Positions 3,895 through 31,765 of a stretch of 33,593 bases of DNA are shown one piece after another. The position numbers and the translations under genes are program-made. Every line of letters starts with the position of its first letter. Position 1 is the first letter of the stretch. Below the pieces are notes generated by a model, which did not search any database, was not told where the DNA came from, and saw nothing but the letters and a program-made list of their open reading frames with translations. Origin of the DNA: Candidatus Nomurabacteria bacterium. GTDB lineage: Bacteria > Patescibacteriota > Minisyncoccia > Phycocordibacterales > UBA9973. The stretch spans positions 1 to 33,593 of the forward strand of contig DAIEQH010000003.1 of NCBI GenBank assembly GCA_027347985.1, in the 5' to 3' direction.

Positions 3895-4078
3895 GATATC
3901 AGACTGGTTGGGTAAGTAAAGCTAGCATCGTTGGCAACGTGTTGGTAACTTTCCTTAACAAAATAGCTAGTCTGCGATAGGGTTGGGTTGGAATAATAGC
4001 TTAAAAAGTGCTATTATTTCTTTACAAATTAATATTATTCAAAAGGCCTAACCCCTTGGAATTTCTGAGGATATGGTC

Positions 4079-4223
4079 TAAAAACTCGCTACAAGATAAA
4101 GAACCCTTCGTCAGGGTACTTGTAGCGAGTCATAATCGGAAACGGTTATGGGTGGGTCGCAAGATCCATCGCCCGGCGGAGGGCTCTTTGTCTATCTGCT
4201 AGGGTATTAAAAACTCGCTACAA
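4079..4223 (+). ncRNA. Candidate structured RNA (cis-regulatory leader or small RNA), family not recognised
   Basis: Long stem 4095-4117/4171-4192 encloses two abutting 8-bp hairpins with GAAA and GCAA tetraloops. Several G-U pairs work only on the + strand. Confidence 0.7.
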
Positions 4224-16377: not shown

Positions 16378-16998
16378 TTATTTTAGCATGTTTTTATTTT
16401 TTAATTTATTGTAGAGAAAGGAAACAATTGTTGGCAAGAATGAAATAAACACTATGCCCAATAATATTGGTAGTAAATATGTATCAATATTTGGAATCTG
16501 TTGCCCTAGAAAATATCCAAGTAAAGTAATACCCGTGGCCCAAATCAATCCACCGAGAATATTGTATGAGATGAAAGTTTTGTAATGCATTTTGCCGACG
16601 CCAGCGAGTATTGGTATAAAAGTACGTACGACAGGGATAAAACGTGCTAAGACGATAGCTTTTTTGCCATGCTCTCTATAAAAATCCTCAGCTTCAGCAA
16701 TGTGTTTTCTTTTAAAGAAAAAAGAATCATCGTGCGAAAATATTTTTGGTCCAACTTTAAAACCAAATAAATATCCGATTTGGTCGCCCAAAACGGCGGC
16801 GAAAGTAACGACTAAAACCAGTAAAGCAATATTGAAATAACCTTGAGAAGCAAGCAACCCTGCAGAAAAGAGGAGAGTATCTCCCGGAAGAAAAAAACCA
16901 AAGAATAAGCCAGATTCAGCAAATATAATAAAGAAAATGCCGAAATAACCTATTGCTCTAATCAATATTGGTAAATCAATATTTAATATAGATTCCAT
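16378..16998 (-). CDS. dedA: DedA family membrane protein
   Basis: FAESGLFFGFFLPGDTLL, GDQIGY and ARFIPVVRTF motifs. Confidence 0.93.
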   Translation of the reverse strand: MESILNIDLPILIRAIGYFGIFFIIFAESGLFFGFFLPGDTLLFSAGLLASQGYFNIALLVLVVTFAAVLGDQIGYLFGFKVGPKIFSHDDSFFFKRKHIAEAEDFYREHGKKAIVLARFIPVVRTFIPILAGVGKMHYKTFISYNILGGLIWATGITLLGYFLGQQIPNIDTYLLPILLGIVFISFLPTIVSFLYNKLKNKNMLK

Positions 16999-17066
16999 CC
17001 CATTAGAAATTTTTAATTAATAATTTTTGTCTCGTTTGCGAAATTTCTAACGGGACAAGTAATTTA
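16996..17066 (-). repeat. Stop-to-start inverted-repeat element, copy 1 (dsbA-dedA)
   Basis: Sense strand reads TAA attacttg TCCCGTTAGAAATTT ...N28... AAATTTCTAATGGGA TG. Confidence 0.9.
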
Positions 17067-17822
17067 TTTTAATGCAGCGTCAATTTTTGGCTTTACACTA
17101 GAAAGTGGCTCTGCTCCATCAATAGTACTGACAACTTTTCCATCTTTCAAAATATATCCTTTTGGTGTGCCTGTCACTCCTGCTCCAGTGCCTTCAGTTT
17201 TAGAATCAGCAATAGCTTTTTCGTATTTATTGCTATCTAAGCATTGGTCAAAAGTTGTAGAATCTAAACCGAGATTTTTAGCAAAAGATTTTAAGTTTGG
17301 ATCAGAAAAAGCTCCTTGGTTTTCTCCATTTTGGTGTGAGTAAAGATAATCGTGGAATTCCCAAAACTTACCTTGATCTCCAGCGCATCTTGCTGCCTCA
17401 GCAGACCTGATTGATTCTGGTCCCAAAAATGCCCAATCACGATAGACAAATAAAACTTTTCCGTCCTTTACATAATTCATAACTTCAGGCAAAAATGGAG
17501 TCCAATTTGGGTCGTTCTTTTTCAGATATTGTATTACAGCTGAATCAGCTTTTAAAGAGCCGAAGATTGCTCCACAGAAAGGACATTGAAAATCTTCGTA
17601 TAAAATAATTGTAACTTTTGCTTTTGGATTTCCGAGCGCCATGTCTTCTTTTGTTACGGGAGCTGGTGTTCCTGTCACAGCTACATTGCCATTTGCTGGC
17701 ACATTTGTAGAAGGCGGTGTACTTCCTTTTAATAAAATTGCTCCGGCTATTAAAACTCCAGCGACGACGATAGCCATAGGGATTGAAAAATTGTTTGGTT
17801 TTGTGTTTACTTCTATTTCCAT
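17064..17822 (-). CDS. DsbA-family thiol-disulfide oxidoreductase with N-terminal membrane anchor
   Basis: EDFQCPFC, AARCAGDQGKFWEFHD and GVTGTP motifs. Confidence 0.9.
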   Translation of the reverse strand: MEIEVNTKPNNFSIPMAIVVAGVLIAGAILLKGSTPPSTNVPANGNVAVTGTPAPVTKEDMALGNPKAKVTIILYEDFQCPFCGAIFGSLKADSAVIQYLKKNDPNWTPFLPEVMNYVKDGKVLFVYRDWAFLGPESIRSAEAARCAGDQGKFWEFHDYLYSHQNGENQGAFSDPNLKSFAKNLGLDSTTFDQCLDSNKYEKAIADSKTEGTGAGVTGTPKGYILKDGKVVSTIDGAEPLSSVKPKIDAALK

Positions 17823-17961
17823 AAAAATTTATTGTATAAGTTTGTAATGCTTAAGTATAACCTGTAGTGAAATTTTTAGCAAAAATTCTGCTATAAAAAT
17901 GTTAAAAGCCAAGCCTTTAACATTTTTTAAAGTTCGATTTTGTTGTGCTATAATAGCCCTT

Positions 17962-18459
17962 ATGACACCTTTCGAGAAAATAAAGCAAAAAATATGGGAT
18001 TTTATATATAGCTTCTTTCTGCCTGTTCGCACCTTCCTTTTAAAATTAGGCATTATTTGGCATAAAAAGGGAAGACAAAAATACCATATCGGCTGGCTTG
18101 CTCCTCATAAAACCCTAGAAGGTCTTAAAAAACATCTTTTTGACAAGTGGGGATTTGGCAATCACTTTATCGCTTGGATAGATGAAGACCAAGTGCTTTC
18201 TTGGAGGAAACTAACAGATTTTGAAGACCAGTATCATTTACGAGTTTACAAAGATGGAGAAATTTGTGGACATTTTGAATACACTCCCGAAGCACACCCT
18301 CTTGAACATTTGGAAGAGAAGGGAGAAATAAATAAAAAAGGAGACTTCTTAAAATTCTTGGGAGACTTTGTAGTTCAAAAGAAACATATTTCACATCTCA
18401 AAATGGACCCAAATGCTTTTGATCCGAAGTCAGAAATTACGATAGAAAAAGAAAAATAA
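17962..18459 (+). CDS. Hypothetical protein
   Basis: Open frame with QYHLRVY..GHFEYTPEAHPLEH. ATG 17962 follows TGcTATAAT by 7 nt. Confidence 0.7.
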   Translation: MTPFEKIKQKIWDFIYSFFLPVRTFLLKLGIIWHKKGRQKYHIGWLAPHKTLEGLKKHLFDKWGFGNHFIAWIDEDQVLSWRKLTDFEDQYHLRVYKDGEICGHFEYTPEAHPLEHLEEKGEINKKGDFLKFLGDFVVQKKHISHLKMDPNAFDPKSEITIEKEK

Positions 18460-18460
18460 A

Positions 18461-19483
18461 ATGAACGATTTTTTTGAAAATTTTAATCAAACTCATGGAC
18501 TGGAAAAAAAATTTATATCTGTTCAATCAGAATTAGAAGATGTAAATGGTAATAAAAAAGATATAAAGATTGAACTTATGGAAGACGGTAATCCGCGAGC
18601 CGTAGCTTTTTTTGATATAGATGGTACACTGGCGCACCTTGATAGTATTCATGGCAAAGCTATTGCAAAACTTTTTCCTGAAGAGAAGCCAAAAGAGCTG
18701 GAGAAAACATATTATGGAGGTTTTAAATTAGGAAATTCTTTTCGGGAATTTGATAGAATGCGAGGAATTTATATTGATAAAAATCATCCGGAATGGAGAG
18801 ACCCAGAAATTTATTTAAAAGAACGCTTTGCTAAACATAGTAAAGAAATAGATGAACCGGGGAACGAGGCACATGAAATAGCAGCAGAGATTTTAAAAGC
18901 TTATGGAGAGATGGCAGGGAATGTCGCTGATGAAATTTATAAAGAGAATAGAGAGGAATTTAAGCAATCGAATATTGAACCGATTTTTCATTTAGCTAAA
19001 ATATATCAGAAGCTCGGCATACCAATGGTCGGCTTTACCGCTAATGCAAAAATATTTGTAGATAAACTAGCGAAATACTTAGGACTTTCAGATTTATTTA
19101 TAGATATTGCGACAGATGAAACAATGTCTGGAGGAGGAAAAGAAAATGCAATTCATTATTTAATAAATGAATTAGAAGAGAAAGGAATCAAAGTCCCTAA
19201 GGACAGATTAATATTTGTAGGTGATTCTATACGAGGAGATATAGGTAGTAGTATCACTGCACGATTAAAAGACAAAGAAATCCATGGGCAAGGAGTTTTG
19301 GTCTTGAAAGATAAAGACGCTCTCATTCAAATCAAAAAACAGATTAATGAAGACTCGGATTTAAAATCTATAGTTGACTCTATTGATATACATGGATTGG
19401 TAGTAAGCGATGTTCCGTTGGACGAAAAGGGCAACCCAATGTTGCTTTCTCGCTTTAGAAATAAATTTTTAGAGAAACTATAA
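18461..19483 (+). CDS. HAD superfamily hydrolase
   Basis: FFDIDGTL motif I, FTAN motif II, VGDSIRGD motif IV. Confidence 0.8.
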   Translation: MNDFFENFNQTHGLEKKFISVQSELEDVNGNKKDIKIELMEDGNPRAVAFFDIDGTLAHLDSIHGKAIAKLFPEEKPKELEKTYYGGFKLGNSFREFDRMRGIYIDKNHPEWRDPEIYLKERFAKHSKEIDEPGNEAHEIAAEILKAYGEMAGNVADEIYKENREEFKQSNIEPIFHLAKIYQKLGIPMVGFTANAKIFVDKLAKYLGLSDLFIDIATDETMSGGGKENAIHYLINELEEKGIKVPKDRLIFVGDSIRGDIGSSITARLKDKEIHGQGVLVLKDKDALIQIKKQINEDSDLKSIVDSIDIHGLVVSDVPLDEKGNPMLLSRFRNKFLEKL

Positions 19484-19484
19484 T

Positions 19485-19529
19485 CTGTCAAACATCTCTG
19501 TCAAACACCCGATGTTTGACATTTGACAG
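19485..19529. repeat. Nested TGTCAAAC palindrome between convergent genes (REP-like or bidirectional terminator)
   Basis: tgtcaaaca-cccga-tgtttgaca (19499-19521) is flanked by ctgtcaaa (19485-19492) and tttgacag (19522-19529). Confidence 0.6.
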
Positions 19530-19531
19530 GC

Positions 19532-20725
19532 TTATTTCATTTTAGACTCTGGCATTGCGTAATCCCAAAGTTTGCCCGCAACATTGTTTGACTTTCCAAA
19601 AAGAGGGTAGTGATGCAGATCTATGAAAGGTAAACTATTGCATTCAATTATTCCGCAATGTTGCTCGGTATACCATGGTTCTTCTATTTTTTCTATAATG
19701 AGGTCAACACCGACGAGTGGGTCTTTCAAATATGCTCCCAATTTTTCTAACATTTTTACATTTTCCGGATGGATTATTTCTGTCACTTCTGTCGTCGTGC
19801 CACCTATACCACGGCTAGTTTTTTGAGAAAAAGTAATGACTTTGCCGACGGCTGGGATATCTTCCATTTTTATTCCTTCACGTTTCAACTCAACTTCTGC
19901 ATCTGGGTCAATAACTATTTTGTGGAAGATTGGCCCTTTTCTTTCAGGTCTATCATTTTCTTTATCCATCAATTCTTTTAGAGTGTGAATTCCATCTCCT
20001 GTCACTTCTGGCTGGTCTCTTCTTACCACGCCGACTAATTTACCATTTACTAAAGTTGCTCTAAAAAGATAGCCTCGTAGTTCTTCTTCTATCACCACGA
20101 GTGGGGAAAGTTTTTTTGCTTTTTTAAATCCATAAATTAATTTTTCAGGAGTATCGATATGTATAAGAGTATGACGAGAACGCGAACCTAAATTTGGTTT
20201 AGTAATGACTGGTTTAGTTATTTCATTAAATATTTTTAATGCTTTTCTTTTTGTAAAAGCTGTTCCGCCTCTTGCTACTGGCAAACCTTCTTTTAAAAAT
20301 TTCTTTTTCATTATCCCTTTGTTGTCCATCCAATTTATGGCATCTCCGCTTTCAGTATCATTGTCTCCACGAGGTAGTCCATCAAAATTTATTACTTTAC
20401 CTTTGTATTCTGCGATGAAAGAATCTTTTATAGGACCCATATGAAATTCCTTCATTTTTATTCCACGTCTTATAGCTTCATCCCAAAAACATTTTGTACG
20501 CAAAGAATCCTGACTATCTGGCCTTTCTGAAAAATGAGCAAACCCTAAAAAGACCATTGTTTTTAAAAAGGGGATAGAAGCTTTACTTGATATAGCCTCA
20601 GCGGTGCTTTTAAAAAGCATTTCCATAATATTAAAAAAAGGTTGACCAATGTAGCTCATTACGACAGACATATAAGCTATAGCATGACTCTCTTGCGCTG
20701 GTTCGCAATCTTTACAATATTTCAT
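19532..20725 (-). CDS. ATP-grasp ligase, cyanophycin synthetase N-half / GshF C-terminal-like
   Basis: DNKGIMK, VITKPNLGSRSR, VTGDGIHTLKEL, GVDLI and IIECNSLP motifs; no Mur-ligase half. Confidence 0.75.
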   Translation of the reverse strand: MKYCKDCEPAQESHAIAYMSVVMSYIGQPFFNIMEMLFKSTAEAISSKASIPFLKTMVFLGFAHFSERPDSQDSLRTKCFWDEAIRRGIKMKEFHMGPIKDSFIAEYKGKVINFDGLPRGDNDTESGDAINWMDNKGIMKKKFLKEGLPVARGGTAFTKRKALKIFNEITKPVITKPNLGSRSRHTLIHIDTPEKLIYGFKKAKKLSPLVVIEEELRGYLFRATLVNGKLVGVVRRDQPEVTGDGIHTLKELMDKENDRPERKGPIFHKIVIDPDAEVELKREGIKMEDIPAVGKVITFSQKTSRGIGGTTTEVTEIIHPENVKMLEKLGAYLKDPLVGVDLIIEKIEEPWYTEQHCGIIECNSLPFIDLHHYPLFGKSNNVAGKLWDYAMPESKMK

Positions 20726-20733
20726 ATCTCATA

Positions 20734-21990
20734 TTATACACGAACATTATATTTCCCGGAAACTATCCATTTATAAGTCGTCATTTCTTTTGGCCCCATT
20801 GGACCACGAGCGTGGATTTTTTGAGTAGAGATTCCTATTTCAGAGCCAAGACCGAAAACAGCACCATCTGAAAACCTAGTAGAAGCATTTACATAAACAA
20901 CAGCAGCGTCTATCTCTTGCAAAAACTTTTCAGCATTCTTTTTATTTTCTGTCAGTATTGCTTCTGAATGTTTTGATGAATATTTGTTAATAAATTTTAT
21001 CGCCTCGTCAGTATTTGAAACTATTTTGATAGACATTTTTTGACTTAAGAATTCTCGTCCAAAATCTGTTGCTTTTGCAATTTTTAAAAGATTTTTTTGA
21101 TAAACATTTTCTAAAATTTTATAACTTTCGGTATCTGCAAATAGTTCAACATTTTTCTTTATAAGAAGTTTAGCTACTTTTGGCAAAAATTCTTTCGCAA
21201 TATTTTTGTTTACTAGAAGCGTATCTAACGCATTACATACACTTGGACGTTGTGTTTTTGCATTGAAAATAATTTCAGCAGATTTTTCCAACGATGCACT
21301 TTCGTCTACATACGTATGACAAACTCCAGCGCCAGTTTCTATGACAGGCACCGTAGCGTTTTTCCTGACGAAATCTATAAGGCTCTTACCTCCACGTGGG
21401 ATAATGATATCTACTAAACCATTAGCAGAGATTATATCTAAAACAGCGTCTTTTATTTTTGGGTCGATAAATTGGACTATTTCAGAGTTAATATTACTTT
21501 TTACTAAAGCATTTTTTATAAGTTTATGAAGGATGATATAACTCTCTCTTGCCTCCTTACCACCTTTTAATATGATTCCATTAGCAGACTTTAAACATAT
21601 AGCAGCGACATCTGTCGTTACATTTGGACGTGATTCATATATAACACCAATGACACCGATAGGGACTCTTTTTTTACATATTTTTAAACCAGATAGTTCT
21701 TTACAGTCAAAAATTTCTCCTATAGGGTCTTTCATTTTTATTAAGTTCTCGATTTCTTTTGCCATTCCTTCTATACGTTTCTCATTTAATAGAAGACGAT
21801 CATACATTTCATTATTTTTTGAGAGTTTTTTTAAATCTTTTGTATTAGCTGTAATAATTAGTTTTTTATTTTTGAGTAATTCTGCACTTAGATTTTTTAG
21901 GATTAAAATTCTTTTAGTATGTGGTAAAAGGCCGAATGATTCTGAAGCGACCCTTACATTATTTAGTTGTTTTAGTATTTTTTTATTCAT
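20734..21990 (-). CDS. proA: Gamma-glutamyl phosphate reductase
   Basis: VPIGVIGVIYESRPNVT, RPSVCNALDTLL and GISTQKIHARGPMG motifs. Confidence 0.96.
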   Translation of the reverse strand: MNKKILKQLNNVRVASESFGLLPHTKRILILKNLSAELLKNKKLIITANTKDLKKLSKNNEMYDRLLLNEKRIEGMAKEIENLIKMKDPIGEIFDCKELSGLKICKKRVPIGVIGVIYESRPNVTTDVAAICLKSANGIILKGGKEARESYIILHKLIKNALVKSNINSEIVQFIDPKIKDAVLDIISANGLVDIIIPRGGKSLIDFVRKNATVPVIETGAGVCHTYVDESASLEKSAEIIFNAKTQRPSVCNALDTLLVNKNIAKEFLPKVAKLLIKKNVELFADTESYKILENVYQKNLLKIAKATDFGREFLSQKMSIKIVSNTDEAIKFINKYSSKHSEAILTENKKNAEKFLQEIDAAVVYVNASTRFSDGAVFGLGSEIGISTQKIHARGPMGPKEMTTYKWIVSGKYNVRV

Positions 21991-22001
21991 TATTATGTTT
22001 T

Positions 22002-22745
22002 TTATTTACTTAATTCTTTAGCTCTTTTATATGCAGAATTCACCGCTTCTAATATAGTTTTATCAAAATTCTTCTTTTTGAAAACTTTTAAGGCTGCTTC
22101 CGTTGTTCCGCCTTTTGAAGTTATTTTATTTATAAGCATAGAATAATCAGATTCTTTACTGAGTAGGGCAGAAGCCAAAAAAGTTTTTTCTACTAAAATT
22201 TTACTTTCTTTTAGAGTTAGTCCGAGATTTTTTGATGCCTTAAATAAATAATCTGCCAGAAGAATAAAATAAGCAGGACCACTTCCAGATATGGCTGTAA
22301 CTTTATTTATTACATCTTCGTCTTTTACTTCGAAGTTTTCTGTTATTTTATTTATGAAACCTTTTACTTTTTTAGTTTCAAGTGAAGATAAACCTTCTTT
22401 TTTCCAAGCGGCGATACCAAGGCCCATAGAAAGTCCTAGGTTGGGCATCATCCTGACTATTTTTTTATGACCAGAAAGACTGAAAAGTTTTTTAATAGGG
22501 AAACCAGCCATAATTGAGAGCAATATTGTTTTTTTATTAATTCCATATTTTTTAAGTTCTGATATGGCATTAATTGCATCTTGAGGTTTTACAGCCAAAA
22601 TTATGAAATCAGATTTTTTAATACCGCTTAAATCCTTTTTATCTATATCAACAGTAAAAATCTTGATTGAAGAATCTTTTGAAAGAGTTTTTGCTATTGC
22701 TTTACCCATTGTGCCGTAGCCTATAATTGTTACGTTTATTTTCAT
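22002..22745 (-). CDS. proC: Pyrroline-5-carboxylate reductase
   Basis: IIGYGTMG, LAVKPQ, RMMPN, TAISGSGPAY and TSKGGTT motifs. Confidence 0.95.
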   Translation of the reverse strand: MKINVTIIGYGTMGKAIAKTLSKDSSIKIFTVDIDKKDLSGIKKSDFIILAVKPQDAINAISELKKYGINKKTILLSIMAGFPIKKLFSLSGHKKIVRMMPNLGLSMGLGIAAWKKEGLSSLETKKVKGFINKITENFEVKDEDVINKVTAISGSGPAYFILLADYLFKASKNLGLTLKESKILVEKTFLASALLSKESDYSMLINKITSKGGTTEAALKVFKKKNFDKTILEAVNSAYKRAKELSK

Positions 22746-22817
22746 CCCATTAGAAATTTTAATTAATAAACTTCATCATTATAACATGTCCGTTAAATTT
22801 CTAACGGGACAAGTTTA
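22743..22817 (-). repeat. Stop-to-start inverted-repeat element, copy 2 (proB-proC)
   Basis: Sense strand reads TAA acttg TCCCGTTAGAAATTT aacggacaTGTTATAATgatgaagtttattaatta AAATTTCTAATGGGA TG. Confidence 0.9.
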
Positions 22818-23567
22818 TTTTTTAGCTGTGAATATTGTGCCAGAAAAATTTTTCCCCAAAGCTTTAATAAGTATATCTTTTTCTTTTCCATTACCTACTA
22901 ATGTTTCTACTCCATGGCCTGTCGCATATTTAGCTGCCTCTACTTTTGAAATCATTCCCCCTAACCCTAAGTCAGACTTATTAGGGGAGCAAAGCTTTTT
23001 GATTTTTGAATCGATAGTAGTTACTTTCTTTATAAGAAGCGCATTTTTGTTGTGGTCTGGATTACAAGTGAAGAGACCATCTTGATTGGTTAATATGATT
23101 AATTTATTTGCCTTGAGCCCGGCTGCTATTTTTGCTCCTAGGTTGTCGTTGTCTCCTATTGTCAAATCTTCGGTCTTCATCACATCATTCTCATTTATAA
23201 TAGGTAAGATTTTATGAGAAAGCATAGCTTCAATATTATGGACGAAATTTTTAAAACGTTCATGGTTTGTCAAATCATCGCTCAAAATTAAAATTTGTCC
23301 GATTGAAATGTTATGTTTTTGTGCTTCGCGATAATAATCGTGTATTAAGATTGGCTGTCCTATAGCAGCAGCGATTTTTTTTCTATGTGGATTGGTGAAG
23401 GGGACACTTGGAAGTCCTGCTCCGACAGCGCCTGAAGATACGAGTACGACTTCTATCTGTCGTTTTAATAAAACAGATATTTCCTTAACAAGCTTACTTA
23501 TTTTCTTTTGATCAAGGCCATTTTTGCCCGCAATGACTTGAGTTCCAACCTTTATAACTATTCTCAT
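22815..23567 (-). CDS. proB: Glutamate 5-kinase (short form without PUA domain)
   Basis: IVIKVGT, VSSGAV, AAIGQ, PIINEND, GDND and GGMISKVEAA motifs. Confidence 0.95.
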   Translation of the reverse strand: MRIVIKVGTQVIAGKNGLDQKKISKLVKEISVLLKRQIEVVLVSSGAVGAGLPSVPFTNPHRKKIAAAIGQPILIHDYYREAQKHNISIGQILILSDDLTNHERFKNFVHNIEAMLSHKILPIINENDVMKTEDLTIGDNDNLGAKIAAGLKANKLIILTNQDGLFTCNPDHNKNALLIKKVTTIDSKIKKLCSPNKSDLGLGGMISKVEAAKYATGHGVETLVGNGKEKDILIKALGKNFSGTIFTAKK

Positions 23568-23603
23568 CTTTCAATCTTATATTACTTTGGGGAGATTGTA
23601 ATG

Positions 23604-23632
23604 TTGACAAGAATAATATTGCGTGATACTAT
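23604..23632 (+). promoter_or_regulatory. Sigma70-type promoter
   Basis: TTGACA (23604-23609), 17-nt spacer ending in TGa, TACTAT (23627-23632). Confidence 0.75.
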
Positions 23633-23672
23633 TTATATAGACGAAATAATAAAGCACATTTAAAAATTTATT

Positions 23673-24196
23673 GTGGAGAAAAAAATGTTAACAGACTTAG
23701 TAGTTGGAACGATAGGTTCTATCATAGGCCTAAAATTAGGCTTTGGTTGGAATTCTATTATAATTTTTCTTGCTGCTATCGCCATAGATGGAGATATTGT
23801 AATAAATGAGTTATATAGAATATTTATTAAGAAAGAAAAAAGTTTGGTATTAAAAACTTTCTTGATGAAAATTCTTACACTCATAAGTTCATACTTCATT
23901 TGCCACTTTTGACGACACCTATAGTTTTTATTGTCGGGTTGCTATATAGTGGGTCCTCTTTGTTTGCTCTACTAGTATCTTTTGTTCTTTTGTTCCATTT
24001 TATACACGATACTTTGGATGATAATTTTGATGGAGTAAGTTGGCTCTATCCGTTCAAAAAAGATGTGTATAAAATAAAGCACAGACATTTAGAAAAAAAG
24101 AGCAGAGAAGAATTAAAAGAAGAGGCAAAAAAATTAGCAGAAAGGCCTAGGAGTTCAAAAAAGATTTTTAAGGATAATACTTTCTACACATTTTAA
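23673..24196 (+). pseudogene. Frameshifted membrane-bound metal-dependent hydrolase (YdjM/DUF457-like)
   Basis: The first frame has AIDGD. The second frame is open from 23831 and carries THKFILH, HFIHD and WLYPF. One extra A in the A6 run at 23836-23841 would join them. Confidence 0.65.
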
Positions 24197-24199
24197 AAG

Positions 24200-24238
24200 A
24201 GCCCAGTAAAATTAATTTTACTGGGCTTTCTGCTTTTT
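24200..24238 (+). terminator. Intrinsic terminator
   Basis: Perfect 28-bp palindrome agcccagtaaaatt/aattttactgggct directly after the stop codon, followed by T-rich sequence. Confidence 0.75.
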
Positions 24239-24328
24239 GGGAGATTGACAGGGCCAGGGGATAGTAGTACTACTATAGATAGTTGATAGATATTTGACAA
24301 AAAAAGAAAATAAATAAAAGGTGACAAA

Positions 24329-24718
24329 ATGAAAAAGGATTTTAAAAATCCTCAATTAGAAGAGGATTTGAAAAAATTTATGAGTCATTGGGAGACTCAA
24401 AAAGACCCAAAATTTCAGTCAGACTCTCTGGACATAGAGGTCTCAGAGTATGTTGACGAAGAAACATTGATTGTTATTTTTCGTAGAGAAATAATAACAA
24501 AAGAAGAGGGTCTTTGTTTATATTCAGTGATTTGCATCTTTAGACCAAAAGATGTCGAAGTTTTAAGTAACAAAAAGTATTACCAAAAAGCGCCGGTGTA
24601 TTATAATGCTGGTGACAAAATTTTTGATTTGTTTCACGTGGAAAAAACAGGAACAAAAATTTTAATAACGGCTATTAGTTTTGATGGTCGAGACAAAGTT
24701 TTTTCATATCAATTTTAA
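24329..24718 (+). CDS. Hypothetical protein
   Basis: 129-aa ORF with upstream TTGACA and its own terminator; no recognised motif. Confidence 0.6.
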   Translation: MKKDFKNPQLEEDLKKFMSHWETQKDPKFQSDSLDIEVSEYVDEETLIVIFRREIITKEEGLCLYSVICIFRPKDVEVLSNKKYYQKAPVYYNAGDKIFDLFHVEKTGTKILITAISFDGRDKVFSYQF

Positions 24719-24723
24719 ATTCT

Positions 24724-24753
24724 GCCCAGCAAAACAAGCTGGGCTTTCTTCTT
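24724..24753 (+). terminator. Intrinsic terminator
   Basis: gcccagc-aaaacaa-gctgggc followed by tttcttctt. Confidence 0.7.
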
Positions 24754-24817
24754 GTCTACTAACTTTCCATATGAAAAGATAGTAGACACTTAACCGAACG
24801 CCTGGCGTTTGGCTATT

Positions 24818-25477
24818 TTAATGCGCCACGGTGAAAGCGATTATTTTTCTGGCGCCGTTTTGTTTTAATATTTTTTTTGCTTCAGTTAAGGTCGCACCAG
24901 TAGTGAGCACGTCATCTATTAGGATTATGTTTTTGTTTTTTATAAGTTCAGGATTCTTTACAGCAAAAGAATCTGAAAGATTTTTCAACCTATCTCGTCT
25001 TTCTTTAATATTGGCCTGATGTTCTGTCTCTTTTATTTTTATCAAAATGTCTTTCTCTAATTTCCAATCTACGCCATGGCGTAGATTATTTATTTCTATT
25101 AATTTTTTACAAATTAATTCTGCTTGATTATAACTACGCTCCCGATATCTTTTTTTAGAAAGGGGAATGGGTATCAAAATTGGTTCACGAAAATTGCTCA
25201 TCACACTTAATTCCGAAAGTTCTTCTAATATCTTGTCATAAATAATCTCCGCGAAAACACTGGCTAATCTTTTTTTGCCTTTATATTTCAAAAGCCAAAT
25301 AGATTTTTTGATAGGTGGATGGCGATAGTCAAATAATGGAAATATCCAATTAGCACTTTCTCTTTCTGCTGAAGGAGAATCCGAAAGGCATTTTAGACAC
25401 AAGTCTGAATCTTTTTTTCCACAAGAAATACAATTCACAGGGAAAATGATGTTTAGTATGGTGTCTAATATAAGCAT
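24818..25477 (-). CDS. comF: ComF family competence protein (zinc ribbon plus PRTase-like domain)
   Basis: FPVNCISC..LCLKC, RSYNQA and ILIDDVLTTGATL motifs. The start is set at MLILD (25477) because the longer track ORF overlaps pilM. Confidence 0.9.
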   Translation of the reverse strand: MLILDTILNIIFPVNCISCGKKDSDLCLKCLSDSPSAERESANWIFPLFDYRHPPIKKSIWLLKYKGKKRLASVFAEIIYDKILEELSELSVMSNFREPILIPIPLSKKRYRERSYNQAELICKKLIEINNLRHGVDWKLEKDILIKIKETEHQANIKERRDRLKNLSDSFAVKNPELIKNKNIILIDDVLTTGATLTEAKKILKQNGARKIIAFTVAH

Positions 25478-25508
25478 TGTGCTATAATTATATGCATAAT
25501 TTAAGAAA

Positions 25509-26636
25509 ATGGATAATCCAATTAAAAACTTTTTTTCAGGTTTGAATCTTTTTAAGGCTGGCGAGAGCGACAGTGCCATAGGTGTGGATATAGGTTCTTC
25601 TGCCATTAAAGTTGTTGAAATAAAAAAGAGAGGAGGCAAAGCTATACTTGAAACTTATGGAGCTATTTCACTTGGTTCTTATGCTGAGACGGAAGGAGAA
25701 CGAGTCACCAACTTGCCAGTTGAAAAAATTACGGAAGCCCTAAAAGAGGTTTTAAAACAATCTGGGGTAGCGACAAAATCTTCTGCTTTTTCCATTCCAG
25801 TACGATCAAGTTTAATTTTTACTATTTCATTGCCTGCCCAAGTCAAGAAAGAGGAAATTCCAATGATAATACCGACGGAAGCTCGCAAATATATTCCTGT
25901 ACCCATCACTGAAGTTTCTTTAGATTATTTTATTTTACCTAAAAAAGAGCCTTCTTATGAAGAAGCTAATAGTGGAAAGTTGTCGACAGAATTAGGAGAA
26001 AATACAGAAGTTTTAGTCGTTGCGATTCAAAATGATGCAATTTCTAAATACCGTTCTATTGTTTCAGAATGTAATTTGGAAGCTGGATTTTTTGAAATTG
26101 AAACCTTTGCTTCTATCCGAGCAAATTTTGAACATGAACTTTCTCTGGTGCTCTTGATGGATTTTGGGGCTTCGAGTACCAAGCTTTCTCTGGTTGAATT
26201 TGGTATGGTGAAAAGTCATCACATAATAAACAGGGGAGGAGCGGATATCACGGCTTCAATTGCGGGGTCTTTAGGTATTTCATTTGGAAAAGCTGAAGAA
26301 ATGAAAAAAGAATATGGCCTTTTTGAAAATGAAGCTGAAAAAGAATTAGCAGACATAATCAAAACGCATATAGACTATATCTTTTCAGAAACTAATAATG
26401 TATTATTAGGACATGAGAAAAAATATGACAGAACTATTAGTAAAGTCATATTCACAGGTGGCGGATCACTCTTAAAAGGACTTAAAGAAGTAGCTTCAAA
26501 TAGTTTTCGAGCAGAGATAGAAATAGGGCATCCTTTTTCTAAAGTTGGTGCCCCAGAATTTTTACAGAAAGTTCTTGAGACGACAGGTCCAGAATTTGCA
26601 GTTGCATTAGGTTTAGCCTTGCGAAAGTTACAATAA
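25509..26636 (+). CDS. pilM: Type IV pilus assembly protein PilM
   Basis: GVDIGSSAIK, EARKYIP, MDFGAS, TGGGS and AVALGLALR; actin-like fold. Confidence 0.92.
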   Translation: MDNPIKNFFSGLNLFKAGESDSAIGVDIGSSAIKVVEIKKRGGKAILETYGAISLGSYAETEGERVTNLPVEKITEALKEVLKQSGVATKSSAFSIPVRSSLIFTISLPAQVKKEEIPMIIPTEARKYIPVPITEVSLDYFILPKKEPSYEEANSGKLSTELGENTEVLVVAIQNDAISKYRSIVSECNLEAGFFEIETFASIRANFEHELSLVLLMDFGASSTKLSLVEFGMVKSHHIINRGGADITASIAGSLGISFGKAEEMKKEYGLFENEAEKELADIIKTHIDYIFSETNNVLLGHEKKYDRTISKVIFTGGGSLLKGLKEVASNSFRAEIEIGHPFSKVGAPEFLQKVLETTGPEFAVALGLALRKLQ

Positions 26637-26664
26637 GTGAGATAATAAGTAGGTAAATAAAATC

Positions 26665-27264
26665 ATGGAGCAAAATTTTCAAACATCTTTTATACCGAAG
26701 AAGCCAATGATAGAAGAACGAGTGAAAGTGTCACGACCAGTTGGTCTCGTCACTATTATTTCTATTTTTATTTTCTTTACTGTGGTCATTGCTTCAGGAG
26801 GTCTTTATTTTTATGACGGTATTTTAAAGAAAAATATTGTCCAAATGGAAAATGATTTAAATTTGGCAAAAAATCGTTTTGAACCTTCAAAAATAATTCA
26901 ACTTCAAGTTTTGGACAAACGTCTCAATGCCTCAGAAGAAATTTTGTCTAAACACGTTGCTATCTCTCCTATATTTGAAGCGTTGCAGGCTTTGACAATG
27001 AAGACAGTCAGCTATACCAGTTTTAGTTACAGTTTTGATGACACTAAAAAGAAAGGAAATATTAAAGTAGATATGAAAGGTATAGCTATAGGATACAAAT
27101 CTGTAGCTTTACAGTCGGACCTCTTTGCAAAAAATAAATATTTGATTGATCCAGTTTTTTCCAATCTTTCTTTAGATGACAAAGGCAACGTGATGTTTGA
27201 TTTGGAGTTTTCGGTCGATCCGAATTTTATTGATTATAAGAAGATACAAGAAGCTACAAATTAA
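26665..27264 (+). CDS. PilN-like protein
   Basis: FQTSFIPK N-terminus, one TM segment, coiled coil; follows pilM. Confidence 0.65.
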   Translation: MEQNFQTSFIPKKPMIEERVKVSRPVGLVTIISIFIFFTVVIASGGLYFYDGILKKNIVQMENDLNLAKNRFEPSKIIQLQVLDKRLNASEEILSKHVAISPIFEALQALTMKTVSYTSFSYSFDDTKKKGNIKVDMKGIAIGYKSVALQSDLFAKNKYLIDPVFSNLSLDDKGNVMFDLEFSVDPNFIDYKKIQEATN

Positions 27265-27266
27265 TC

Positions 27267-27854
27267 ATGTTTAAATTTATTTTACCAGCTAGTTTAATAG
27301 GAGTTGCCATTGCAGGATTTTTCATTTTTGCTGATCCGCTTTATCAAAGCATTTCAGGAGAGAGAGCCCAAATAGCATCTTATGACGAAGCCTTAAGTAA
27401 TTCTAAGGCCCTTGAAGCGGAGAGAGATAAATTAACTCAAAAATATAATTCTTTCGATCCTGATAATTTGGCCAAACTTCAAAAACTTCTTCCAGATAAT
27501 GTAGACAATATTCGTTTGATTTTAGAAATAGAAAAAATAGCATTGCCGTATGGTATGGCTCTTAAAGATGTGAAATACGACACAACAAGTAGTAGTACGG
27601 TAAATTCACAAATAGGTGGGATGCAAACTGAGACAGGATTAAACAAAAATTATGGCACTTGGAATTTAGAATTCTCCACTCAAGGTACATATAATAATTT
27701 TATTAGTTTTCTAAAAGATTTAGAGAGTAACCTTAGAATTGTAGATGTGTCTTCTGTCCAGTTTTCTTCAAGTGGTAATTTAGGTCTTAATCCGAGCGTT
27801 CCAGAGGCTTATAAATATAGTTTTAAAATTAAGACTTATTGGTTAAAAAATTAA
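27267..27854 (+). CDS. pilO: PilO-like protein
   Basis: TM segment, coiled coil, KLLPD and GTYNNFISFLKDLESNLRIVDV. Confidence 0.8.
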   Translation: MFKFILPASLIGVAIAGFFIFADPLYQSISGERAQIASYDEALSNSKALEAERDKLTQKYNSFDPDNLAKLQKLLPDNVDNIRLILEIEKIALPYGMALKDVKYDTTSSSTVNSQIGGMQTETGLNKNYGTWNLEFSTQGTYNNFISFLKDLESNLRIVDVSSVQFSSSGNLGLNPSVPEAYKYSFKIKTYWLKN

Positions 27855-27863
27855 AACAAAAAT

Positions 27864-28313
27864 ATGGCAAAAATAAAAAACATTATAATATTTGGAGTGA
27901 TTGCGATAGCTTTGATTTTGGTCTATATTTTTTTTATTAAACCATCTCCTGATACCGCTAATTTAGTTTCTTCCACTTCTTCTGCCACTACTCCAGACAC
28001 AAATGTTGTAAGCCAAAACTCCGCAGTTGCTCAGGATCTCTTGTCTTTGTTGTTGAGTGTAAAAAGTATCAGGTTAGACGATTCTATTTTTTCTGATAAA
28101 GCATTTACTAGTTTACATGACTCTAGTATTTTACTTACTTCTCCGGGGAATGAAGGAAGACCCAATCCTTTTGCTCCAATTGGTTTTGATGCTCTTCCTG
28201 TTTCTCAGATTCCTCCTCCTTCTACAACTCCAGAAGTTTCTACGCCTTCTGCCACGGTTCCTATAGCCCCTTCAGTGCCTGTTGTACCAAAAACAACTAC
28301 CAAAAAGTTATAG
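27864..28313 (+). CDS. Membrane-anchored pilus accessory protein (PilP position)
   Basis: N-terminal TM segment, GRPNPF motif, Pro/Thr-rich tail. Confidence 0.55.
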   Translation: MAKIKNIIIFGVIAIALILVYIFFIKPSPDTANLVSSTSSATTPDTNVVSQNSAVAQDLLSLLLSVKSIRLDDSIFSDKAFTSLHDSSILLTSPGNEGRPNPFAPIGFDALPVSQIPPPSTTPEVSTPSATVPIAPSVPVVPKTTTKKL

Positions 28314-28395
28314 ATAAATTACTTGTCCCGTTAGAAATTCTGTGGGCATGTTATAATGATAATATGATTATTAATTTAAAATTTCTAATGAGATG
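28311..28395 (+). repeat. Stop-to-start inverted-repeat element, copy 3 (before pilB)
   Basis: TAG ataaattacttg TCCCGTTAGAAATT ctgtgggcaTGTTATAATgat... AATTTCTAATGAGA TG. Confidence 0.9.
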
Positions 28396-30144
28396 AGTTT
28401 TTTAGAAGAATTAGTAAAAAAGGGCTTAATCAATAAAGGCCAAATAAGTGAAGCTAAAAATCTTGCGAAAGAGAAATATAATGGTGATATTGACGAAGCC
28501 TTAGATGAACTTGGAGTTCCAGAAGAAAAAATCCTTGAAACAAAAGGAGAGTATTTAAAAATACCGATAAAAAAAATTGATATAAAAAAAGTATCTTTTG
28601 ATGTTCTAAAATATATTCCAGAAGATGCAGCTATCTATTATCATTTTGTTCCTCTTCTCTTTAAAGATGGAATATTAGAAGTTGGTATTTTAGACGGAGA
28701 AAATCCACAAGTGATAGATGCTTTGCAATTTATTTCGGCTAAGTCGGGTATCCCTTTTAAGGTTTTTCTCATTTCTAACTCTGACTATAAAAGCTTAATG
28801 GAAAGTTATAAAAGTATGTCTATAGAAGTGGGGGAAGCACTAAATGAAATTAATAAAGATAAAGAGGATAATGATACCAAGAGTCTAAGTGAAGCAAGTT
28901 CTCTAGATAAAGAAATAAAAGAGATAAAAGGAGACGAAACAAAGATAGTAGAAGATGCCCCGGTTATAAAAATTGTCGCTGTCATGTTGCGTAATGCTAT
29001 TGAAGGAAATGCTTCTGATATACACATAGAAAATACAGGAGAAAAAGTAAAAATACGTTTTCGTGTAGATGGTAGCCTGCATACGACAATAGTATTACCC
29101 ATGAATATTTATAACGGCATAATCGCACGTATAAAAATTTTAGCTAAGTTGCGTTTGGATGAAAAAAGAAAACCTCAAGATGGATCTTTCAGTACGACTC
29201 TAGATGGACACAAAATAGATTTTCGTGTTTCTACCATGCCTGCCTATTATGGTGAAAAAGTCGTTATTCGTATTTTGGATGCAGAAAAGGGGGTAAAACC
29301 TTTAGACCAATTAGGATTATCAAAAAGAAACTTAGAAATGTTGAGGGATGCGATCAAAAAACCGTATGGCCTTATTTTGATTACTGGGCCTACAGGTTCT
29401 GGAAAATCCACCACTCTTTATTCAATGATGAATGAATTGGACAAAGAGACGAGCAATATTGTTTCCTTGGAAGATCCGGTGGAATATCATATGCCAGATA
29501 TCAACCAGTCACAAATGATGCCTGAAATAGGATATACTTTTGCTTCTGGGCTTCGTTCTATTCTTCGTCAAGACCCAGATGTTATAATGGTTGGAGAGAT
29601 ACGTGATAAAGAAACAGCTCAACTTGCCATTCAAGCAGCTTTGACAGGTCACCTCGTTTTGTCTACTCTTCACACTAATAGCGCCATCGGTGCAATACCT
29701 AGATTGGTAGACATGGGTGTCGATCCTTATCTTATAGCACCAACTCTTATTTTGTCTGTTGCTCAACGTTTGGCTAAAATGACATGTCCTTCTTCTCGTA
29801 AACTTGTTCCAATGGAGGAGAGCGTTAAATTGCAAATAGAAAGCGAATTAAAGGATTTACCAGAAAAATTTAGAAAAGAGATAGAAATCAAAAATGAAAT
29901 GTATGATGTTGTGCCATCTCCAGATTGTCCTTCTGGCACTCGTGGTCGTATTGCTATTTTTGAAATGTTTAAAATAGGTAAAGAAATGCAACAAGTAATA
30001 CTGAAAAATCCAGTTGATGATGAAATATACAAAGTAGCCCGCAACGATGGAATGCTAATGATGAGAGAAGATGCTATGCTAAAAGCAATAAATGGTATTA
30101 TTCCTTATAAAGAGGTTTTTGGATTTATTAATGAGAATGAATAA
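28393..30144 (+). CDS. pilB: Type IV pilus extension ATPase PilB/GspE
   Basis: ASDIH, PQDG, GPTGSGKST, EDPVE, LRQDPDVIMVGEIRD and TGHLVLSTLHTN motifs. Confidence 0.95.
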   Translation: MSFLEELVKKGLINKGQISEAKNLAKEKYNGDIDEALDELGVPEEKILETKGEYLKIPIKKIDIKKVSFDVLKYIPEDAAIYYHFVPLLFKDGILEVGILDGENPQVIDALQFISAKSGIPFKVFLISNSDYKSLMESYKSMSIEVGEALNEINKDKEDNDTKSLSEASSLDKEIKEIKGDETKIVEDAPVIKIVAVMLRNAIEGNASDIHIENTGEKVKIRFRVDGSLHTTIVLPMNIYNGIIARIKILAKLRLDEKRKPQDGSFSTTLDGHKIDFRVSTMPAYYGEKVVIRILDAEKGVKPLDQLGLSKRNLEMLRDAIKKPYGLILITGPTGSGKSTTLYSMMNELDKETSNIVSLEDPVEYHMPDINQSQMMPEIGYTFASGLRSILRQDPDVIMVGEIRDKETAQLAIQAALTGHLVLSTLHTNSAIGAIPRLVDMGVDPYLIAPTLILSVAQRLAKMTCPSSRKLVPMEESVKLQIESELKDLPEKFRKEIEIKNEMYDVVPSPDCPSGTRGRIAIFEMFKIGKEMQQVILKNPVDDEIYKVARNDGMLMMREDAMLKAINGIIPYKEVFGFINENE

Positions 30145-30195
30145 GTTGTTTATATGTGCTATCATTAAAAGTATATTTATAATATAATAATATAT

Positions 30196-30603
30196 ATGGA
30201 GGGAGAAAAGAAAAAAATTTTAATAGTAGACGACGATACATTTCTTTTAGATATGTATGCATTTAAGTTTAGTCAAAATAATTTCGAGGTTCATACTGCC
30301 CCTGGCGGGTTGCAGGCGATCGAAAAACTAAAAGATAATCTTAACCCAGATATTATTATGATGGACATAATAATGCCAGAAATGGATGGTTTTGAAATGT
30401 TGGAAAAAATAAATAAAGAAAATTTATCTCCCAGTTCTATAAAAATAATTTTGTCTAATAAAAGCCAACAAGCCGATATCGAAAGAGGTAATAGTTTAGG
30501 AGCTTCAGGATACATTGTAAAAGCAAATTCCACGCCTCAAGAGGTCATAGAACAGGTAGTGGATATTTTATCAAAAAAAACTGTTAAAACAATTACGAAT
30601 TAA
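30196..30603 (+). CDS. Single-domain (CheY-like) response regulator
   Basis: ILIVDDD, DIIMMDIIMPEMDG, LSN and YIVK motifs. Confidence 0.9.
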   Translation: MEGEKKKILIVDDDTFLLDMYAFKFSQNNFEVHTAPGGLQAIEKLKDNLNPDIIMMDIIMPEMDGFEMLEKINKENLSPSSIKIILSNKSQQADIERGNSLGASGYIVKANSTPQEVIEQVVDILSKKTVKTITN

Positions 30604-30615
30604 CAATTACGAATT
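30588..30615 (+). repeat. 14-bp perfect tandem duplication
   Basis: aacaattacgaatt x2, spanning the regulator stop codon. Confidence 0.8.
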
Positions 30616-30627
30616 ACAAATTAAAAA

Positions 30628-31686
30628 ATGGATTATAAAAAAGAACTAGAAGAACTTATTTTGACAGTCGTTCATGAGAACGGATCTGATTTGCATTTAG
30701 GCGTAGGAAAAGTTCCTGCCATTCGTGTCGCAGGAGAACTCTTTTTTCTTTTGAAGCATGCAGTTTTAACAGAAAAAGATGTTGTCGGAATTTTGGGTGA
30801 AATTTTAGATAAAACGAAATTAGATAAATTTATGGAAGAGCAAGAAATAGATTTCTCTTATGATTTTCGTGGAGAAGTTCGTCTTCGTGGTAATGCTTTT
30901 TTCCAAAAAGGTTTGATAAGTGTTGCTTTGAGGTTAGTCCCGCAAGTAAAATCTCTTTCCGATTTGCATTTGCCCCCAGTTATTGCTGATTTAGCTCGTA
31001 AGAAACAGGGGTTTTTTTTAGTAGTTGGTCCTGTAGGGCAGGGTAAGTCAACTACACTTTCAGCCATGGTTAATTTGATAAACAATGAACAAGCACGACA
31101 TATCATAACAATTGAAGATCCGATTGAATATATGTTTACTCCCAATAAATCAATTATTAATCAAAGAGAAGTCGGTATTGATACTAAAGATTTTCACACA
31201 GCACTTAAATCAGTTTTTCGTGAAGATGTGAATGTTATAATGATAGGTGAAATGCGTACTCCGGAAACGATTTCTACTGCTGTCTCTGCTGCAGAAACAG
31301 GACATTTGGTCCTTTCCACTCTTCATACTAATAATGCTTCACAGACAATAGACAGAATTATTGATTCTTTCCCAGGGAATCAACAAGATCAGATTCGTGT
31401 TGAACTCGCTTCTAGTCTAATTGGTATTTTTTCTCAAAGACTCATTCCTAGAATCACTGGTGGTCTCATTCCTGCTTATGAATTGTTATTAAACAATAAT
31501 GCTGTTTCTAATTTAATTCGCGAGAAACGCACCAAAGAGATAGATGTAGTTATAGAAACAGGGATGGAATCCGGAATGATAGATTTAAACCACTCTCTCC
31601 TCGAACTTGTCCGTGCTGGAGAAATTACCATAGAAAATGCTTATCAATTTTCACTTAATCCAAAAGGCCTAGAGCGTATTTTGTAA
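30628..31686 (+). CDS. pilT: Type IV pilus retraction ATPase PilT
   Basis: GSDLHL, GPVGQGKST, EDPIE, AAETGHLVLSTLHT and AVSNLIRE (AIRNLIRE-like). Confidence 0.94.
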   Translation: MDYKKELEELILTVVHENGSDLHLGVGKVPAIRVAGELFFLLKHAVLTEKDVVGILGEILDKTKLDKFMEEQEIDFSYDFRGEVRLRGNAFFQKGLISVALRLVPQVKSLSDLHLPPVIADLARKKQGFFLVVGPVGQGKSTTLSAMVNLINNEQARHIITIEDPIEYMFTPNKSIINQREVGIDTKDFHTALKSVFREDVNVIMIGEMRTPETISTAVSAAETGHLVLSTLHTNNASQTIDRIIDSFPGNQQDQIRVELASSLIGIFSQRLIPRITGGLIPAYELLLNNNAVSNLIREKRTKEIDVVIETGMESGMIDLNHSLLELVRAGEITIENAYQFSLNPKGLERIL

Positions 31687-31765
31687 ATTACTTGTCCCGT
31701 ACTAAATTTTTGATTACGGGAATATAATGATAAATATTAATAATTAAAATTTTAGTACCGGGATG
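31684..31765 (+). repeat. Stop-to-start inverted-repeat element, copy 4 (pilT-pilC), covariant arms
   Basis: TAA attacttg TCCCGTACTAAATTTT ...TATAAT... AAAATTTTAGTACCGGGA TG. Confidence 0.85.

Follow-up and report, generated by a model that had tools for sequence, protein, structure and literature searches.

How do unrelated genes in one small genome come to be preceded by nearly the same hairpin, ending exactly on their start codons? The question is raised by a 33,593-nt stretch (the window, to which all coordinates refer) of a Candidatus Nomurabacteria genome (G000, the genome under study; 646 kb, 34.7% GC, 133 contigs; other genomes and loci carry G and L numbers), in which such an inverted repeat stands before dedA, proC, pilB and pilC. 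The original prediction described a four-copy stop-to-start element and read it either as a dispersed regulatory RNA, which hides the start codon until the left arm is melted by a ribosome that terminates 5–12 nt upstream, or as a domesticated mobile repeat. The observation was confirmed and its interpretation partly supported. In our reading the four hairpins are probably non-coding copies, comparable to miniature inverted-repeat transposable elements (MITEs), of a miniature palindromic mobile family that lands on start codons in Nomurabacteria-type Patescibacteria and resembles the nuclease Ssn with its NTS repeats.

All four copies were located where they had been described, each running from a stop codon to an ATG between co-directional genes. 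The left end of each falls 0–7 nt past the stop, and the right end (GGG; GAG in copy 3) touches the next ATG. By domain content the downstream genes are VTT/DedA (PF09335), P5C reductase (PF14748), PilB-like T2SSE (PF00437) and PilC-like T2SSF (PF00482). Copies were searched for with motif patterns and a covariance model (R1, from alignment A1 with nine copies); those of the window belong to the class called type 1 here, with subtypes 1A and 1B, and are laid out as follows.

16996–16998, minus strand: ATG of the VTT/DedA-family gene, paired with the UGU of the left end in the predicted fold
16999–17060, minus strand: type 1 copy 1, with ACTTGT, left arm CCCGTTAGAAATTT, loop and right arm AAATTTCTAATGGG; 71.2 bits (R1)
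17064–17066, minus strand: TAA stop of the upstream DsbA-like thioredoxin gene; spacer to copy 1 ATT, 3 nt
22743–22745, minus strand: ATG of proC (P5C reductase), after copy 2
22746–22814, minus strand: type 1 copy 2, subtype 1A, abutting the upstream stop (spacer 0); 87.7 bits (R1)
22778–22783, minus strand: TATAAT in the loop of copy 2, with TG two bases upstream, read from the sequence as an extended −10-like box of putative function
22815–22817, minus strand: TAA stop of the upstream amino-acid-kinase gene, before copy 2
28311–28313, plus strand: TAG stop of an upstream unnamed 149-aa open reading frame (ORF); spacer to copy 3 ATAAATT, 7 nt
28321–28392, plus strand: type 1 copy 3, subtype 1A, right arm ending in GAG; 78.7 bits (R1)
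28352–28357, plus strand: TATAAT (as TGnTATAAT) in the loop of copy 3, putative function
28393–28395, plus strand: ATG of the pilB-like T2SSE ATPase gene, after copy 3
31684–31686, plus strand: TAA stop of the upstream pilT-like ATPase gene; spacer to copy 4 ATT, 3 nt
31690–31762, plus strand: type 1 copy 4, subtype 1B, arms CCCGTACTAAATTTT / AAAATTTTAGTACCGGG with a one-base bulge; 76.3 bits (R1)
31723–31728, plus strand: TATAAT in the loop of copy 4, putative function
31763–31765, plus strand: ATG of the pilC-like T2SSF gene, after copy 4

The loop of copy 1 was read as having no −10-like box. In the predicted stem UGUCCCG of the left end is paired with CGGGAUG of the right end, and the entire AUG lies inside the stem as U-A, G.U and U.G pairs; both the inclusion of the start codon in the hairpin and the reading of the arm mismatch as a G.U pair on the sense strand had thus been recognized correctly. 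The four copies scored 71–88 bits with R1 (E-values 4e-13 to 6e-10), all four having been among its training sequences. Short motifs discriminated poorly: the 11-mer arm alone gave 15 matches at up to two mismatches against 9.9 ± 3.1 by chance, which is weak evidence, and a first pattern pass with ACTTGTCCCGT (up to two mismatches) gave 85 matches, mostly chance.

That the elements are inserted DNA follows from their presence or absence at orthologous sites. The pilB region was compared in 41 genomes (G000 and 40 congeners), and in 33 of these the junction upstream of pilB is element-free, with a spacer of 1–18 nt (for example "taa TTAATT atgagt..."). Six genomes have an occupied junction, and three different subfamilies account for these. 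G000 carries its type 1 copy; G057 and G024 carry copies of a second class, type 2, whose left ATGAGT is the same as the gene's own ATGAGT; G010 carries a type 2 copy with the left repeat mutated to ATTAGT; G072 has a member of a GC-rich subfamily, and G068 retains the right half only. The remaining two comprise one unrelated 53-nt spacer and one unscorable junction. The pilC junction is occupied in four of the 41 genomes, by type 1 in G000, G063 and G049 and by another subfamily in G007, and holds tiny spacers or unrelated hairpin or heptamer repeats in the others. Mapped on a PilB tree (a single-gene tree, rooted for drawing only), each site requires four state changes, at least three of which are forced by well-supported branches. 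The proposal of a regulatory device common to the four genes is not upheld by this distribution, since most congeners run the same junctions without an element, occupancy is patchy and different subfamilies occur at the same sites. As a separate observation, the pilT-pilC gap of G075, G059, G022, G055, G050, G020 and G054 (among loci L044–L083) contains unrelated hairpins or repeats built of heptamers.

The four copies of the window are a small part of a dispersed, MITE-like family, as one of the two original options had it, and the description as a four-copy element was an undercount. The genome under study contains eight type 1 copies with the left end AC[T/C]TGT, situated before dedA, proC, pilB, pilC, fpg, map, rnpA (this copy directly after rpmH) and an rpe-like gene. 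It further contains ten type 2 copies with an ATGRRT-like left end and perfect arms (CCCGTTAGA.../...TCTAACGGG), which precede alaS, infB, metG, gatC, rplU, rplD and four other genes, as well as four short hairpins with the same ends. Family members have arms of 14–17 nt and lengths of 62–76 nt, their terminal inverted repeats bounding a short non-coding body. When position and orientation relative to start codons were checked genome-wide, the copies were found not to be random; they abut start codons, and all 15 long copies with a measured downstream frame open an ORF. Three further copies (C43b, C79b and C28) were read by eye only. Comparison of the bodies suggests that subtype 1A may be a deletion derivative of a type 2 subfamily.

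Among relatives, R1 found matches in 15 of 24 congeners (0–26 each) and none in the other nine, and it also matched two of the 16 genomes that represent other families in the order; 27 of 30 model matches in relatives open frames of at least 60 codons. Counts of the left and right arm 9-mers were 42/40 in G010, 28/26 in G057, 16/15 in G058, 2/4 in G072 and 0/0 in G024, with 0–8 in reversed-pattern controls, and the number of copies per congener ranges from none to about 40. A wider scan with one genome per species gave at least 119 type 1 stretches, nearly all in records titled Candidatus Nomurabacteria, Paceibacterota or Patescibacteria. In Rfam the four copies had no match at the gathering threshold, the elements of window positions 16900–31900 had none at E ≤1, and 11 other copies and two long forms had none at E ≤0.1. 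Rfam otherwise returned only a LOOT RNA at another place in the window, a group I intron from a different contig and one miRNA-like match put down to chance.

The mode of insertion is most legible in type 2, for which 40 arm-pair loci from G010, G057 and G058 were examined. The arms are preceded by T (before CCCG) and followed by A (after CGGG) in 38 of the loci, and outside these bases an exact 4-nt direct repeat was found in 33, compared with a mean of 2.7 and a maximum of nine for shuffled partners (2000 trials). The repeats read TGAA, TGGA, TGTA, TGAG, TGCA or TGGG (or their complements), or TAAA, TAAG and TAGA. At two loci (L105 and L114) a base other than A precedes the left repeat and the right side nevertheless reads A plus repeat; the right-hand A therefore belongs to the element, and the ATG is rebuilt from the element's A and the TG of the target. 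An ATG opening at least 66 codons adjoins 28 of the 40 copies, ATA adjoins ten, and two are other cases. Several of the ATA-adjoining copies are in-frame inserts within ORFs, of 54 or 69 nt including the duplication. The position on start codons can accordingly be accounted for by the terminal A, a low target specificity (T[G/A]NN) and, as a step that we infer, the loss of harmful insertions. An extension of the host protein in frame from the left ATG of type 2 was ruled out, as this frame meets a stop within 6–21 codons. Short in-frame forms in G010 and G057 (L095, L107, L115, L103 and L124) would add 18 or 23 residues (PVR...SNG) to the proteins that contain them.

Type 1 differs at its left end. 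A detail set of 84 copies was taken from the first 80 loci of the public-genome scan with a pattern that fixed only the TGT of the left hexamer, which reads ACTTGT in 52 copies, ACCTGT in 25, ACGTGT in three, ACATGT in two and otherwise in two. An ORF is opened by 81 of these copies, and a stop codon lies 0–9 nt before the element in 40. The hexamer also occurs in a GC-rich copy (L104, ACCTGT), so that it is not tied to one body. Its origin as a target duplication decayed at each site was rejected, as the same hexamer is found at more than 100 different genes.

For the classification of left ends 145 type 1 copies were pooled from all sources. Just over half (75) begin at most 12 nt past a co-directional stop. 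Another 27 begin 5–9 nt after a box matching TATAAT in at least five of six positions, with a peak of 22 copies at spacer 6, and 18 of these 27 also have the TG of an extended −10; the 43 unclassified copies include many with weaker boxes or short upstream genes. The first ATGs of 508 ORFs in G000 show a similar arrangement, with a TATAAT-like box 5–8 nt upstream in 110 cases, 66 of them at spacer 6, and GGAG or GAGG at positions −18 to −4 in only 21. The peak in box spacing together with the rarity of GGAG/GAGG indicates a largely leaderless, Shine-Dalgarno-poor host, which agrees with the original description of the host as one without such signals. The A of the type 1 ACNTGT thus occupies exactly the place that the first base of the old start codon had held, either after a stop codon or at the +1 position of a leaderless promoter. 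A ribosome that melts the left arm while terminating at the upstream stop cannot be the general mechanism, since roughly one type 1 copy in two does not follow a stop codon and the 27 promoter-proximal ones begin at the predicted +1. Such coupling may occur at stop-adjacent copies, where it is not needed to account for them; to promoter-proximal copies it is inapplicable. A transcription terminator was ruled out by the AT-rich stem, the loop of 30–45 nt and the lack of a T-run, and a terminator consensus scan of positions 16900–31900 gave 13 hits against 7.9 ± 2.6, which was called chance level, with none at the elements.

Pairing of the arms has been retained through compensatory changes, as had been proposed. 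For the covariation analysis 107 copies were aligned to R1, giving 106 distinct rows; the alignment is fitted to the model and the copies share descent. In these rows 83.9% of the cells pair, the covariation score was 0.074 compared with 0.040 ± 0.003 in shuffles (reached by none of 500) and at most 0.017 in slid controls, and 45 cells had changed on both sides against 14.4 ± 2.6 expected. One stem position is occupied by GC in 19 copies, AU in 12, UA in seven and GU in eight. Subtype 1B is misregistered at four stem pairs (60–64 cells per pair counted as unpaired), and the figures are therefore conservative for it. The AUG lies within the stem in 105–106 of the 106 distinct copies, the search pattern having fixed TGT and ATG. 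The triple change in the arms of copy 4 (TACT/AGTA for TTAG/CTAA) is real, whereas its interpretation as a local compensatory event did not hold, because it marks the commoner subfamily with 62–64 of the 106 copies.

At six orthologous sites the arms are 0.79–1.00 identical and the loops 0.60–0.88, while the neighboring gene, in the five groups that have no N-terminal indel, is 0.42–0.54 identical at third codon positions; for the ftsA copies the values are 1.00 and 0.93 for the arms against 0.54. The sense strand folds better than the antisense strand in 136 of the 145 type 1 copies, on average by 4.5 kcal/mol, and in 19 of 27 type 2 copies. Arm covariation and the better sense-strand fold show that the hairpin structure is maintained. 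It is the structure on one strand that matters, and these data do not distinguish RNA from single-stranded DNA, or a benefit to the host from the needs of the element.

A candidate for the mobilizing enzyme was found in relatives. At two loci (L089 and L090) the distance between the arms of a pair is 276 and 291 bp, and the interval holds an ORF of 84 and 86 aa, respectively, for a single-domain GIY-YIG protein (PF01541, E-values 1.4e-16 and 5.1e-16), in which no other domain scored over the cut-off. A comparison of both proteins with NCBIfam returned nothing over the cut-off, and the nearest solved chains by sequence were the UPF0213 proteins 1zg2 and 1ywl. Small GIY-YIG proteins are present in 50 of 61 genomes genus-wide (a tally that includes one unpublished genome), and CCCGT-type arms flank ten of 29 inspected GIY-YIG loci on both sides. 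In seven of the 29 the nuclease gene is inserted at a host start codon in the direction of the host gene, and its TAA stop falls within the right arm, separated from the host ATG by 4 nt (TAA-CGGG-ATG). At one locus (L250) translation from the left ATG, which belongs to the duplication, would continue in frame into the nuclease.

Three further arrangements were met. In L257 (G022:C8) an arm-bearing GIY-YIG ORF is fused in frame, via the right arm, to a downstream ORF of 400 residues, giving 497 aa in total. In L086 (G000 contig C128, positions 204–427) a group I intron (RF00028, 70 bits) interrupts a tRNA gene, next to which lies a partial small GIY-YIG ORF. On G000 contig C28 a GIY-YIG ORF, a tRNA and a type 2 element stand in a row.

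The explanation that we favor combines these features into a start-codon-landing mobile family. Its ends are T-CCCGT...ACGGG-A, and full-length members, with 276–291 bp between the ends, carry a single gene for a stand-alone GIY-YIG nuclease of 84–86 aa. Type 2 insertion duplicates a 4-nt target, and if that target is the TGNN of an ATGNN, the A of the element and the duplicated TG restore the start codon, so that the gene survives the insertion. Copies landing elsewhere in these compact genomes would mostly be lost, and the survivors therefore seem to end exactly on an ATG. Type 1 would be a short derivative in which a fixed ACNTG replaces the left duplication, its first A at the A of the old ATG and its left end falling 0–9 nt past the upstream stop or exactly at the +1 of a leaderless-type promoter. 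The hairpin may be kept because the nuclease recognizes a single-stranded DNA form, as Ssn does with NTS hairpins. In the transcript it may loop out the insert of about 70 nt and return the AUG to the side of the stop codon or the 5' end; in this way the insertion would do no damage to a host whose translation starts without Shine-Dalgarno sites. The TATAAT in the loop would be a leftover promoter that may add transcription.

Several points weigh against this explanation. Type 1 shows no target duplication at pilB and pilC, where the fixed ACNTG stands in its place and no host base is lost, and no ACNTGT-ended nuclease-carrying copy was found among the 29 GIY-YIG loci or in G000; mobilization of type 1 by the nuclease is therefore deduced from the shared arms only. 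In G000 no arm-flanked nuclease gene was found, its three small GIY-YIG ORFs being 37–39% identical to the L089 protein, and G057, with 28/26 arms, had no nuclease match at E 1e-6. We know of no GIY-YIG nuclease that performs transposition alone, and the nuclease activity, excision and integration of the family are predictions. The conserved arms and loops and the sense-strand fold bias are equally predicted by host-level selection on RNA. Each subfamily faces one way relative to the gene despite its symmetric ends, which a selfish model alone does not explain. Finally, counts across copies overstate independence, as the copies are related by descent.

A variant on the same mobile DNA gives the RNA hairpin a larger part. 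Here the pairing of UGUCCCG with CGGGAUG in type 1 would set the AUG directly beside the upstream stop or the 5' end of a once leaderless mRNA, and 70S ribosomes, either on a 5'-terminal AUG or re-starting after termination, would initiate across the base of the hairpin of about 70 nt as in a ribosome shunt. Full-length forms would use the captured start codon for their own expression and would pass ribosomes on to the host gene via UAA-CGGG-AUG. We regard this as rather unlikely; if true, few autonomous mobile elements that we know of would be smaller than the full-length relatives, which have about 280 bp and a single nuclease of 84 aa.

Three other explanations were weighed. A host-selected regulatory RNA, in which the hairpin hides the AUG, a terminating ribosome melts the left arm to couple translation and the mobile origin is history only (a domesticated element), would account for the AUG in the stem, the stop 0–9 nt upstream in 40 of 84 copies, the more stable sense strand, the compensatory pairs, the conservation of the arms above synonymous sites (as at ftsA) and the SD-free host. 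It does not fit the 33 of 41 genomes without an element at pilB, the majority without one at pilC, the nine of 24 congeners without a model match or the 27 copies that have no ORF upstream and begin at the predicted start of a transcript; unrelated hairpin repeats occupy the same junctions in other species, and sister copies lie in frame inside ORFs. We hold this to be improbable. Still weaker is the case for a portable promoter-plus-leader cassette, in which an extended −10 in the loop supplies the gene with its own transcript and the inverted repeat is incidental. The constant position of TATAAT or TGnTATAAT within the loops of copies 2–4 and many relatives speaks for it, as does the conservation of this box in four of five orthologous ftsA copies, where other loop positions have drifted. 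The box is missing from copy 1 and from a large 1B sub-variant (loop AAATGACCAC), the arms are better conserved than the loop, and a sigma-70 consensus scan of positions 16900–31900 was at chance level (64 vs. 58 ± 8) with none at the elements. This is the least probable of the readings.

Only marginally better placed, and very improbable, is a REP/REPIN-like repeat moved by the genome's own Y1 (RAYT-like) transposases. Such an enzyme would fit the duplication-free, strand-specific type 1 with its oriented conserved 5' flank, and PF01797 matches are plentiful (eight in G000, seven of them over the cut-off, eight in G008 and 11 in G014). However, the short GC hairpins on either side of the eight Y1 ORFs in G000 differ from one ORF to the next, and none has CCCGT arms or ACNTGT; the Y1 transposases were rejected as the mobilizing enzyme on account of these other hairpins. 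Moreover, type 1 has its arms and loop blocks in common with type 2 and the nuclease-carrying copies.

Those Y1_Tnp (PF01797) ORFs, of 208–249 aa, lie on contigs C33, C46 (two), C79 (two), C100 and C122 (two). The private GC-rich hairpins stand both upstream and downstream of them in a REP/RAYT-like layout, and their number is high for a 0.65-Mb genome. Elsewhere in the window, the LOOT RNA (RF03000) at 4045–4170 on the plus strand is a full-length match of 83 bits against a gathering threshold of 46.4. Many congeners (L044–L083) have a conserved GTTGTCCACA, which we take to be DnaA-box-like, 27–32 nt upstream of the −10 box of a gene of 131–135 aa that follows pilB; its counterpart in G000 (window 30145–30195) is degenerate.

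Among known systems, the Correia elements (CREE/NEMIS) of Neisseria are short, gene-less and dispersed, have terminal inverted repeats and promoter-like boxes, are co-transcribed with adjacent genes and can form RNA hairpins, features that the present elements have in common with them and with other bacterial MITEs. Correia elements duplicate TA and, to our knowledge, are linked to no dedicated small nuclease, in contrast to the duplication of 4 nt (TGAA, TGGA, TAAA) or none, the siting on start codons and the full forms with a tiny GIY-YIG gene found here. With REP/REPIN-RAYT and IS200/IS605 systems the family would have in common the recognition of a single-stranded hairpin, strand specificity, the lack of a duplication (as in type 1) and an enzyme gene flanked by the repeats. 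It differs in that the enzyme linked to these arms is of the GIY-YIG and not of the HUH/Y1 class, the Y1 genes of G000 bearing other hairpins.

The closest published counterpart is Ssn (CDD family cd10448), a 94-aa single-domain GIY-YIG nuclease whose binding to its hairpin repeat is limited to one strand in single-stranded form and which cuts a few nt upstream, with a conserved upstream flank that orients the repeat and a repeat-gene-repeat arrangement that its authors liken to an insertion sequence (Chenal et al., Nat Commun 2025, PMC11893778). Shared with Ssn and its NTS/SRM repeats are a single-domain GIY-YIG gene of about 85–95 aa with hairpin-forming inverted repeats on both sides, and many scattered gene-less repeats that are oriented by a conserved non-palindromic upstream flank and whose hairpin is relevant on one strand (PMC11893778). 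The present family is unlike it in that the two repeats fold together into a single long hairpin (loop 30–45 nt), and in the insertion at start codons with a rebuilt ATG, a 4-nt duplication and empty sites that show the insertion directly; in the same text the NTS is described as a modulator of transformation and not as a start-codon insert (PMC11893778). We found no account of start-codon-targeting hairpin elements in Patescibacteria in a literature search that did not cover the supplementary genome lists of the Ssn paper, which possibly include such genomes.

For annotation, the elements mimic conserved leaders or operators before unrelated genes such as dedA, proC, pilB and pilC and should not be taken as the signal of a regulon. 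The 84–86 aa nucleases and the co-varying hairpins would extend the Ssn/NTS theme towards true mobility and could add further hairpin and nuclease specificities. Landing on a start codon, rebuilding it and folding away would be a strategy fitted to tiny, gene-dense, SD-poor and largely leaderless genomes. Essential genes behind a 70-nt hairpin that encloses the AUG, among them infB, metG, alaS, rplU, rplD and gatC in G000 and ftsA, secY and rpmB in relatives, must nonetheless be translated, and the family is thus a natural test bed for translation initiation in such bacteria.

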